DNA from: Escherichia coli
GTDB lineage: Bacteria; Pseudomonadota; Gammaproteobacteria; Enterobacterales; Enterobacteriaceae
Assembly: GCF_003018255.1 (NCBI RefSeq)
Contig: NZ_CP027441.1
Length of the DNA: 64,000 nucleotides
Direction: 5' to 3' (one strand)
Of this stretch, positions 30,001 to 33,000 are shown in pieces. Numbering within the stretch: the first letter of the stretch is position 1; the number at the start of each line of letters is the position of its first letter. The position numbers were made by a program.

Positions 30001-33000
30001 CAGAAAATGGTTGATGAACTGGGGCACTGGGAGGAATGGCGTTCACGTGCAGAACAAATTCGTCGGCATGTTCTGGAAAATCTTGATGCCTATTTGTATC
30101 AATTGTCCGAAAAGGTTACTGCGAATGGCGGGCATGTATATTTTGCCCGTACCAGAGAGGATGCAACCAGTTACATACTGAAGGTGGCGAAAGAAAAAAA
30201 CGCCAGGAAGGTTGTTAAATCCAAATCAATGGTGACTGAGGAAATTGGCATGAACGCCGTTCTTCAGAAAGCCGGGATACCCGTGATTGAAACAGACCTT
30301 GGGGAATACATTCTTCAGCTTGCACACGAACCGCCATCACATGTGGTTGTTCCGGCAATACATAAAGATCGCCATCAAATCCGCAGAGTGTTAAACGAAC
30401 ATCTGGGGTATGAGGGACCAGAAACTCCTGAAGCAATGACATTGTTCATCCGTGAGAAAATCAGACAAGATTTTCTCAGTGCAGAAGTTGGTGTAACGGG
30501 ATGTAACTTTGCTGTTGCAGAAACAGGGTCAGTCTGCCTTGTTACAAACGAAGGCAACGCACGTATGTGCACCACATTACCTAAAACACATATTGCTGTT
30601 ATGGGGATGGAGCGTATTGCTCCGACATTCCAGGAGGTGGATGTTCTTATTACCATGCTTGCAAGGAGTGCTGTCGGGGCCAGACTGACGGGTTATAACA
30701 CCTGGCTTACAGGTCCAAGAGAAGAAGGACATGTTGACGGCCCGGAAGAGTTCCATCTCGTCATTGTTGACAATGGGCGTTCAGAGGTTCTTGGCTCAGA
30801 ATTCAGCGATGTATTGCGCTGTATTCGCTGCGGTGCCTGTATTAATACCTGTCCCGCTTATCGCCAGATTGGTGGACATGGCTATGGCTCAATCTACCCG
30901 GGCCCAATCGGAGCAGTTATTTCCCCGTTGCTTGGTGGCTATGAAGACTTTAAGGACTTACCTTATGCCTGTTCATTGTGCACTGCCTGCAATGGGGTAT
31001 GTCCGGTAAAAATACCTCTGGCACAACTAATACAAACACATCGGCAGGTTATGGCAGAGACCAAAATAACACCATCAACAGAACGCCGTATAACCGGAAT
31101 ATTCAATTACGTAAACAGTCATCCGGCATTGTGGAAAGTTGGCATGATTGCTGGCGCGAAAACAGCCAGTCTGTTCATCAGGAAAGGTAAAACTCCGATT
31201 AGTGTTGGAGCGATAAAAGAATGGACTGAAGCCAGAGATCTACCATCACCTGATGGAGAAAGCTTCCGTAGTTGGTTCAAGAGATATAAAAAAGGAGGGT
31301 AACTTTATGGAAAACAGAGATGAGTTTCTCGTTGCGATCGCCAGAAAGCTTGGCAGAGCAGTAAAACACACTCCCGAAGCAATGCCGGAACCTGTAAATA
31401 CGCTGGCTTCGACACGTTTAACTGAGTTGACATCAGATCAACGCTGTGAGGATTTTATTAAATTTGCTTCAGAAGTGATGCTTGCCGAGTGTGTGCTTGT
31501 ATCACCCGATGAAGCTCCCTCAAAAGCATTAGATCTCTGTTGGAAGTTCGGTTCCGGGCCTGTCATTATCAGTAACGATCAACGGCTGTTTGATACGGGG
31601 ATTGCACCACTTCTACAAAAAGAGATGGGCGCTGTCCTGTGGGCCCCGGAGAAGGGTGAGGAAAATATTCATCTTGCAGAAAAGGCAAAAACAGGTATCG
31701 TTTTCGCTGAGTATGGACTGACCGAATCAGGAGGTGTTGTCTTATTCTCCGCCCCAGAACGAGGGCGTTCAGTAAGTCTTTTACCTGAAGCGTCGGTGTT
31801 CGTTTTACGCAAAAGCACCATTCTTCCCAGAGTGGCTCAGCTTGCGAAAAAACTTCATGGTATGGCTCAAAAAGGACAACGAATGCCTTCCTGTATCAAT
31901 ATAATTGGAGGACCAAGTTCAACTGCCGATATAGAGTTGATTAAAGTTGTCGGTGTTCATGGCCCTGTATATGCAGCCTATCTAATCATTGATGACTGCA
32001 AATAACAATTATCCTCATGCCTGAGCCAATATATATAGTTCCGGCTCAGGCATCATCATTTTTATCTGTTATTTTTCTATCAGCCCCAAATTTTTCCTGT
32101 GATGTCGCATCGGTTGAAAGTCCAACAAGCGCATTAGACGTTAAAGCGTAAGCATCAACGGATGCGCCATATTGACAAAAAACGTGGCGGCCGACAATGA
32201 AAAGTAAGCGCTCCGGTGATGGTTGTCCTGTCTGGCTACAATCGCGTCCATCGATATTAAAGTGCGCCCAGATCCTGGACAACTTATGCTGCCTGACTCA
32301 ATCGATATTGTACCAGGCTAAGACCGCCAAGTTTTTCCTTTATCCTCAATTAATTATAATTGTTTATGTAATCGATGATGTCTTGCTTTAAGCCCTCCAC
32401 ATTTTTATATTCATTGAGGTAATAACATTCTGATTTCAATGTTCCCAAAAAGCTCTCTATAACTGCATTATCAAGACAATTTCCCCGGCAAGACATACTC
32501 TGGACTATGCCGCTATCCTTTAACCATCGTTGCCACCGGGACATCTGATATTGCCAACCTTGATCGCTGTGCAGTATGGGGTTTTCATCTTTCGACAGCT
32601 GTTTCAGCTCATCCGTAAACATAGTCGGCACCATTGAAGGTTGAGAACGAGTAGCGAGGTTATAGGAAATTATTTCTCCATTATAAAGATCCATGATTGG
32701 CGATAAATACAGCTTCTTGCCATTAACTTTAAATTCAGTGACATCTGTAACCCACTTCTCGTTGGGGCATTTTGCATCAAAAACTGATAATCCCGGAAAC
32801 GTACATAAGGGCAGAGGGGCACCACCTTCTGCCCTTTAATAAACAGGATATTATTACTCCCACAGGACTGCCAGTATCAAAAATGCACCTGCAGTAAGCA
32901 TGGCAAGTTTTTCCCATATCATGGGATTGTCATCCCTCTTTTGTTTTCTTTTTCTCATATAAATGATGGTGTTTACTCAGACGGAAGAGTCTTTCGTCTG

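Follow-up and report, generated by a model that had tools for sequence, protein, structure and literature searches.

Does a short hydrophobic reading frame that follows a hypothetical gene on an Escherichia coli virulence plasmid constitute a gene and, if so, what might it encode? The DNA analysed here, hereafter referred to as the window, is a stretch of 64,000 nucleotides from contig NZ_CP027441.1 (assembly GCF_003018255.1), which is 100% identical to pO113-like megaplasmids of locus of enterocyte effacement (LEE)-negative Shiga toxin-producing E. coli (STEC) carrying saa, sab, espP and lutABC (e.g. NZ_CP027372). An earlier note on this DNA had drawn attention to a mini open reading frame (ORF) of 22 codons, and had likened it to small membrane toxins or leader peptides. 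We find that these codons belong to a longer, conserved ORF of 34 codons which, judging by its pattern of conservation, is very likely a real protein-coding gene for a small membrane protein. On this pO113-like STEC megaplasmid it is probably the fourth, overlapping cistron of a small operon (121-aa ORF, 63-aa ORF, 103-aa ORF resembling ANR proteins, small ORF), its product being an inner-membrane protein of 34 residues that crosses the membrane once.

Reading frame and start codons of the small ORF

The peptide MIWEKLAMLTAGAFLILAVLWE is the minus-strand product of 22 codons running from 32922 to 32857, with a stop codon at 32856..32854. Since translation of 32854-32925 reads P-MIWEK...WE-stop, its ATG lies at 32922-32920; the peptide thus exists as the earlier note had described it, but the coordinates given there, 32857-32925, were 3 nt too high. 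Seven bases separate the stop of the upstream 103-aa ORF (33241..32930) from the sequence ATG ATA TGG GAA, and the ATG begins at the eighth nt after that stop, as had been stated. The 22 codons form the C-terminal part of an ATG-initiated minus-strand ORF of 34 codons at 32958..32854, the start of which overlaps the last 29 nt of the 103-aa gene in another frame. The two features are as follows.

32854..32958, minus strand: conserved small ORF, MRKRKQKRDDNPMIWEKLAMLTAGAFLILAVLWE, 34 codons plus stop, with an N-terminal net charge of +4 and then a single transmembrane (TM) helix
32857..32922, minus strand: 22-codon TM segment with the internal ATG (M13, 32922-32920), a lineage-specific ATG, coordinates corrected

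As a gene of its own the 22-codon segment had been wrongly bounded, the conserved start lying 36 nt upstream and ATG 32922 being absent from homologs that are 87-94% identical. The ATG ATA at this position is present in the window and in locus L009; loci L007, L008 and L006 read ATT GTA instead, and L003 reads CTT GTA. In these relatives (L003, L006, L007 and L008) the frame is open from the upstream ATG. As judged from this comparison, ATG 32922 is a derived codon confined to the window/L009 lineage.

It can nevertheless be asked whether the product is a 22-residue peptide made from ATG 32922, either by termination-reinitiation or by means of GAGGGA as a Shine-Dalgarno sequence, in which case the 12 upstream codons would be irrelevant. 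The short distance to the upstream stop makes this ATG a plausible reinitiation site, and GAGGGA lies 10 nt upstream of it. In addition, ORFs consisting of the TM segment only have arisen independently elsewhere (20 aa in L005 and 26 aa in L017), which suggests that the helix is the essential part. The hexamer, which the earlier note had taken for a ribosome-binding site, does lie there, but it belongs to the final codons GAG GGA TGA of the 103-aa ORF (which ends ...AAA GAG GGA TGA) and is half-paired in a predicted GGGAU/AUCCC stem of -7.5 kcal/mol. ATG 32958 sits in an unstructured A-rich stretch within the 3' end of the upstream gene. Furthermore, the homologs with ATT GTA or CTT GTA keep the frame from the upstream ATG, and in the basic N-terminus both length and charge are kept from one subtype to the next. 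We entertain a 22-residue sole product as a possibility, and only tentatively. The plasmid may also make both the 34-aa and the 22-aa forms, and computation does not settle the choice between the two starts.

A family of small ORFs on I-complex plasmids

The window ORF is a true member of a family of small membrane proteins, each with a single pass, that I-complex conjugative plasmids carry and that has no name and is for the most part unannotated. A tblastn search of PLSDB gave full-length matches to the 22-mer in 1,578 plasmids, 1,551 of them conjugative, from Escherichia, Salmonella, Klebsiella and Shigella hosts, and diverged copies of the stretch occur on other plasmids and a few chromosomes. 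The family comprises three main subtypes and three more distant members (P0038, P0039 and P0040). Within the window's own subtype, the peptide of L007 and L008 reads MRKRKQKRDDSPIVWEKLAMLTAGAFLILAVLGE and that of L003, which has a 6-nt insertion in frame, reads MRKRKQKRGEGEKPLVWEKLAMLTAGAFLILAILGE; the IncI-gamma/K1 and R64-type subtype reads MRRNNLRRNPHEKNIIWEKIAIITASAFIIFAVLWH and the IncI1/K2/Z-type subtype MKQKNISKQINGKNTVWEKIAIFTAALFLIFAVCWS. The ORF hp28 of plasmid pESBL (O3K_26007, 81133-81276, complement) translates to MNKHIQYIPMRRNNLRRIPHEKNIIWEKIAIITASALIIFNTKRKKQ and is therefore a homolog. On R64 itself the small ORF is unannotated in RefSeq (NC_005014, 76339..76467, complement).

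Members are 34-38 residues long. Their first 14-17 residues form a hydrophilic and in most cases basic segment; the motif W-E-[KRQ]-x-A-x-x-[TV]-A-x-x-F-x-x-x-A follows, and the stop comes no more than about 5 residues later. The window ORF shows all of these traits. In alignment A2, residues M1, W15, E16, K17, A19, T22, A23, F26 and A30 are invariant. Extra in-frame upstream ATGs in IncI plasmids (MNTGIS..., MNKHIQYIP...) differ among lineages, the conserved Met being constant in all three diverged subtypes.

A search with the family profile retrieved this family alone (E = 1e-12 to 1e-20). An exhaustive hidden Markov model search of 1.84 billion representative proteins gave only 8 hits, which included the three distant members, and from 5.8 billion proteins a word-indexed search returned 18 clusters, each of them named 'hypothetical' and devoid of Pfam domains. 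Scans of the three subtype peptides against Pfam, NCBIfam, PADLOC and PHROGs returned no match, and neither did a sequence search of the PDB with the family profile.

Several irregular copies were also observed. In loci L010 (2490-2774), L021 (R64; 26135-26419) and L011 (2490-2774) a 94-aa ORF, taken from the NCBI annotation pipeline (PGAP) or from ORF listing, runs across the small ORF and masks it. The idea that the small ORF is an N-terminal remnant of this 94-aa PGAP gene of IncI plasmids was rejected, the 94-aa call being in another frame and over-extending a 58-aa ORF at its N-terminus. Plasmid pPIMMR has a local duplication (L013, 2311-2569) in which the part coding for the small ORF is present twice, once as a fusion with a portion of the 58-aa ORF, and the STEC1590 chromosome (L006, 3255-3350) carries a chromosomal copy of the block beside espI and subAB in which the small ORF is cut by a rearrangement junction, MRKRKQKRGEKPIVWGKLAMLTAGAFLYWLF.

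Selection on the reading frame

Selection was assessed on nine DNA representatives, 44-70% identical between subtypes, over a 21-codon core, using summed Nei-Gojobori proportions of synonymous (pS) and non-synonymous (pN) differences. In the frame of the ORF pS was 0.75, which is near saturation, and pN was 0.245, giving a pN/pS of 0.33, as against 1.18 in the +1 frame and 2.39 in the +2 frame. Variable sites were distributed over codon positions 1, 2 and 3 as 14, 10 and 20 of 21, and the comparison of the window with IncI-gamma gave a pS of 0.975 and a pN of 0.19. In sequence P0036 (MKKKNHFKENKWQKYSMEKIAIF...) two compensating frameshifts restore the frame. A chromosomal relic beside plasmid-remnant genes (L004), at about 72% nucleotide identity, has lost both the frame and the hydrophobic segment and serves as a natural negative control. 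The earlier note would have taken a lack of conservation in homologous regions as a refutation; the ORF is conserved there.

Against these findings has to be set the view that there is no gene, that is, that the ORF is a chance one, located either in the operon's 3' untranslated tail or in sequence that flanks the neighbouring dqlB module on its 3' side, and conserved as DNA or RNA only. Short hydrophobic ORFs are indeed frequent in the window: 105 ORFs of 20 aa or longer were counted in the 6 kb around it, and an equally hydrophobic 17-residue stretch was found in 19 of 392 ATG-initiated ORFs of 20-50 aa in the window. PGAP makes no call here, and the conserved start has no Shine-Dalgarno sequence. 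The small ORF exceeds this chance baseline, however, because its frame is intact in diverged homologs and is under frame-specific purifying selection. The in-frame indel of L003 and the double frameshift of P0036 likewise argue for coding, homology to the dqlB module starts only past the ORF stop, and the ORF also occurs without dqlB or its hairpin. Finally, an Rfam scan of 32300-34400 at E values up to 1 gave no match, so that no known small RNA (sRNA) accounts for the conservation. We consider a non-genic origin very improbable.

The predicted protein and its possible role

AlphaFold2, run with the family alignment, predicted that the N-terminus is disordered and that residues 12-33 form one helix, with a predicted local distance difference test (pLDDT) of 83-95 in the TM part, in keeping with the earlier description of the peptide as essentially one transmembrane helix. 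In four of five subtypes the net charge of the 14-17 N-terminal residues is +4. According to the positive-inside rule, the positively charged end of a membrane protein stays cytoplasmic, and for these reasons the N-terminus is predicted to be cytoplasmic, with one or two residues outside. Residues W15, A19, T22, A23, F26 and A30, all invariant, fall within 40-140 degrees on a helical wheel, an arc of 100 degrees. From this single conserved face of small residues we infer specific helix-helix packing, the invariant face presumably lying against another helix.

A small membrane protein would then be produced as follows. Translation would start from the conserved ATG 32958, inside the end of the upstream gene, and in the window lineage the second start, ATG 32922, may add a 22-residue isoform. 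The positive N-terminus would remain in the cytoplasm while the helix crosses the membrane, leaving hardly any tail in the periplasm, and the face formed by W15/A19/T22/A23/F26/A30 would pack on another membrane helix, either of a partner protein or of the peptide itself. With such a face the peptide would, at a best guess, modulate on a small scale some membrane process linked to the plasmid, and would not be a generic membrane poison.

Plasmid setting and upstream gene block

PGAP annotation of an identical plasmid lists the 121-aa, 63-aa and 103-aa ORFs as hypothetical, followed by an IS3 transposase fragment (IS, insertion sequence), and leaves the small ORF uncalled. The upstream genes are as follows.

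33470..33835, minus strand: 121-aa ORF, first gene of the block, downstream of espP, no family match
33269..33460, minus strand: 63-aa ORF, second gene of the block, matching phrog_3766 (E = 4.9e-12), function unknown
32930..33241, minus strand: 103-aa ORF, ANR-like below threshold, its last 29 nt overlapping the start of the small ORF

The block of four ORFs is tightly packed, with spacings of 9 nt and 27 nt and then the 29-nt overlap. The 103-aa ORF scored 28.3 bits (E = 1.1e-6) against NCBIfam NF033650 (ANR, AraC negative regulator) over profile positions 4-52 of 54; the cut-off of 32 was not reached and no PDB relative was found, and the likeness is therefore given as a resemblance only. 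Relatives of this ORF are found in E. coli only, lack a Pfam domain and bear the NCBI name 'flagellar biosynthesis protein FlgM' (PGAP: 'hypothetical' or 'FlgM'). The FlgM name is therefore probably a mislabel.

Elsewhere in the window, 27550-32005 holds a complete L-lactate permease and lutABC (ykgEFG-like) lactate-utilisation cluster, here on a virulence plasmid and with IS fragments at both flanks. At 43194-43615 a tandem repeat of 111 nt in 3.8 copies (99% matches) lies inside a 497-aa plus-strand ORF (42387-43880). This is probably the 37-residue repeat of the Saa adhesin, and it yields three identical spurious antisense mini-ORFs.

The hairpin and the deleted dqlB module downstream

Downstream of the small ORF, towards lower coordinates, the window holds the following.

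32807..32837, no strand assigned: GC-rich hairpin, AAAGGGCAGAAGG-TGGTGC-CCCTCTGCCCTT, the intrinsic terminator of dqlB in relatives
32783..32787, plus strand: last 5 nt of the deleted dqlB coding sequence, stop included, where homology to dqlB-bearing plasmids ends
32353..32781, minus strand: IS3-family transposase fragment in place of dqlB and agrB (PGAP on an identical plasmid; Pfam rve domains)

Intact relatives have the order SPATE (serine protease autotransporter; espP or espI), 121-aa, 63-aa and 103-aa ORFs, small ORF, hairpin, convergent dqlB and trbA, with L007-L009 carrying the espP version of the block through dqlB and trbA. On IncI plasmids the small ORF is preceded by traY, excA and hha (or, in place of hha, by a HEAT-repeat gene or nuc) and is followed by the 58-aa ORF, the hairpin, convergent dqlB, pnd and trbA. 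The family slot is the excA/nuc-trbA interval of the I-complex (MPF_I) backbone, reading towards the dqlB terminator, and the window ORF occupies it. Even the much more diverged plasmid of L019 keeps the small ORF, hairpin and convergent dqlB between excA/TacAT and trbA. In the window trbA too is replaced, together with dqlB, by the IS3 fragment, and the hairpin is kept. Since homology stops 5 nt into the end of dqlB, where the IS3 fragment begins, the toxin module has been deleted and the hairpin is a relic of it.

The hairpin accompanies each copy of dqlB and is missing where dqlB is missing, a change in its stem is compensatory, and its fold is the more favourable one in the dqlB sense (-24.6 kcal/mol, z = -5.0, on the plus strand; -21.2 kcal/mol, z = -2.5, on the minus strand), and for these reasons it is assigned to dqlB. 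It probably also ends the small-ORF transcript. The dqlB/agrB pair is a type I toxin-antitoxin system defined by Kristiansen (2016; PMC5066626) and validated on pOXA-48 and pOXA-484 (PMC12365149). In one respect, therefore, the earlier note was near the mark, as a true type I membrane toxin gene convergently adjoins the ORF in relatives and is deleted here. An agrB-like antitoxin sRNA gene, unannotated there, was also seen upstream of each dqlB in L005 (2905-2995), L010 (3193-3281) and L019 (4620-4740); these genes contain a direct repeat of the dqlB 5' untranslated region (UTR) and have their own terminator, and the one in L019 has a strong promoter match, TTGACA-17-TAGAAT.

The small ORF does not belong obligatorily to the dqlB module: L015, L016, L011 and the window have it intact and lack dqlB, the plasmids with two copies of dqlB (L005 and L017) have it frameshifted, and dqlB works without it on IncL and IncX3 plasmids (PMC12365149). 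Membership of the module was also considered directly and rejected, given that homology with contexts holding dqlB only begins past the ORF stop and that the ORF occurs without dqlB.

The suggestion of a leader peptide or attenuator did not survive inspection of the downstream sequence, in which the hairpin (32837..32807), 16 nt past the stop, is followed by the IS3 fragment and by no gene in the window. In IncI plasmids the 58-aa ORF lies 27 nt past the small ORF, so coupling is possible there.

hp28, transposon sequencing and the question of a toxin or maintenance factor

In a Himar1 transposon sequencing (Tn-seq) study of pESBL, hp28 was scored as essential for replication or maintenance (P = 0.76), its neighbours hha and hp27 (the 58-aa ORF) scoring 0.59 and 0.42 (Yamaichi et al., 2015; PMC4288162). 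According to that study, hp7 and hp28 lacked known homologs and were possibly essential as DNA sequences (PMC4288162); hp7 was afterwards shown to be ParB. This group also suspected an additional killing system on pESBL, the 'essential' Tn-seq genes perhaps being antitoxins (PMC7602700). Our literature search found no later papers that mention hp28.

Is the small ORF then a membrane-damaging toxin of a toxin-antitoxin or post-segregational killing system, like DqlB or PndA? Its small size and single hydrophobic helix fit, the interval holds two type I toxin systems (dqlB/agrB and pnd), and a further killing system was suspected, as mentioned above. The comparisons with known toxins speak otherwise. 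Aligned by hhalign, the family gave a probability of 0.08% against DqlB, with no NCBIfam hit and without the DinQ/Dql signature, and 0.45% against pESBL PndA, with no Pfam Hok/Gef hit, and PADLOC was likewise without hits. No antisense or repeat partner was found, although the repeat search readily recovered the dqlB 5' UTR/agrB repeats in L010 and L019 and nothing that involved the small ORF. The long 5' UTR with an agrB-type repeat that is typical of DinQ/Dql is absent, and there is no long structured 5' UTR of any kind, since translation begins within the preceding gene. In pESBL, insertions in the homolog are depleted, the opposite of what is expected of a toxin gene, and the 'missing' killing system is now explained by dqlB/agrB itself (PMC12365149). 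We judge a toxin quite unlikely.

The Tn-seq scores of hp28, hha and hp27 would be explained if the small ORF had a protective or maintenance role, in which either the peptide or transcription across its ORF restrained a harmful plasmid function such as DqlB, PndA or the transfer apparatus. The hp28-family peptide (or its translation) would in that case be a maintenance-critical factor that holds in check a membrane hazard which I-complex plasmids create themselves, for example through their type I toxins or through the transfer channel of Dot/Icm-like type. In STEC, IncI-gamma and IncI1 plasmids, and in the distant L019 plasmids as well, the small ORF converges with dqlB. Yet the ORF is intact in the plasmids named above that lack dqlB and is frameshifted in those with two copies, and dqlB/agrB functions by itself on those IncL and IncX3 plasmids from which the small ORF is missing. 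The Tn-seq signal, moreover, comes from an AT-rich stretch, hp28 having 11 TA sites and 32% GC. Shielding of AT-rich DNA by H-NS is a known source of false essentiality in Tn-seq, and the depletion of hp28 may reflect it. A restraining role is, on balance, unlikely, and for the family as a whole we hold it doubtful.

Such an artefact would count, together with several other points, against our preferred interpretation of the small ORF as the last cistron of an operon encoding a 34-residue membrane protein. The partner and function proposed above are purely conjectural. No Shine-Dalgarno sequence precedes ATG 32958 in most subtypes, and consensus scans for promoters and terminators gave matches at or near shuffled expectation and defined no promoter for the small ORF. 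Within the STEC subtype substitutions are few and mostly non-synonymous (window versus L008: pS 0.03, pN 0.07), so that constraint in the window lineage is not demonstrated. A large IncI1 lineage is frameshifted by a 1-nt slip in a G/A tract (L005, to which 232 of 376 records are at least 99% identical), which leaves a 20-aa TM-only ORF (MEKIAIF...), the opposite slip in L017 leaving one of 26 aa. In hp28 (L022, 1634-1777, minus strand) a 26-nt deletion between the 15-nt direct repeats GCATTCATTATTTTC and GCATTAATTATTTTC (L010, 2537-2551 and 2563-2577) replaces the last 8 residues, NTKRKKQ taking the place of the last TM turn and the stop. The frameshift in L005 and the C-terminal deletion in pESBL indicate that the full-length protein is dispensable in some plasmids. 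Direct evidence of translation was not found in the literature either: a search with the peptide strings gave no paper, and supplements of two surveys, the Salmonella small-protein census and 'The Cryptic Bacterial Microproteome', contain none of the peptides.

The G/A tract at the W-E-K junction is itself hypervariable in the IncI1/K2-type sequences, in which it reads GGGA6, GGA6, GGA8 or GGGGA5 (L015 at about 1535-1550, L005 at about 2225-2240, L017 at about 1535-1552 and L014 at about 1535-1550). Three of these four states retain an ATG in frame ahead of the TM segment, with products of 36, 20 or 26 aa. This looks like slipped-strand switching of the N-terminus.

Significance of the small ORF

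I-complex plasmids (IncI1, I-gamma, K, B/O and Z) and pO113-like STEC virulence plasmids are major carriers of extended-spectrum beta-lactamase (ESBL) genes and virulence factors, and their parts list is incomplete as long as a conserved gene under selection is missing from the RefSeq annotation of reference plasmids such as R64. PGAP at times hides this ORF beneath an over-extended call in another frame. hp28 is among the few pESBL loci with depleted insertions and has had no follow-up; with the correct ORF, start and helix face in hand, tests with point mutants become possible. Were its product indeed to restrain a membrane hazard, the 'essential' short ORF of pESBL would be explained, and a protein-level layer would be added to systems thought to be controlled by antisense RNA only. 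In the window the adjoining dqlB/agrB addiction module has been destroyed by an IS element.

Comparison with known systems

The closest counterparts of the window ORF are hp28 of pESBL-EA11 and the R64 ORF, which are true homologs in the same frame with the motif M-basic-W-E-K-I/L-A...T-A..F, and which occupy the same slot, between excA/hha and the 58-aa ORF plus dqlB. They belong to another subtype (about 50% amino-acid and 63-67% nucleotide identity in the core) and differ in that the 58-aa ORF lies between the small ORF and the hairpin and in that the upstream gene is not ANR-like.

DinQ and DqlB are of similar size, consist of a single hydrophobic helix and are plasmid-borne, DqlB being the convergent neighbour in relatives. 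In DqlB, however, the charge is C-terminal, whereas in the small ORF it is N-terminal, there is no sequence similarity, and the small ORF lacks their type of 5' UTR and agrB-type repeat. Hok and PndA share with it a small membrane protein with a basic N-terminus and then a TM helix, as well as the same excA-trbA interval of IncI plasmids. In contrast to these, the small ORF is without a periplasmic Cys-containing domain, a mok-like overlapping frame and a sok-like antisense RNA, and again no similarity is seen.

AcrZ, MgtS and CydX are chromosomally encoded inner-membrane regulators of E. coli of fewer than 50 residues, each with a single TM helix and a conserved face, that bind a larger membrane protein. 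Although it has no homology to them, is plasmid-borne and overlaps the preceding gene, the small ORF described here probably works in a like manner.

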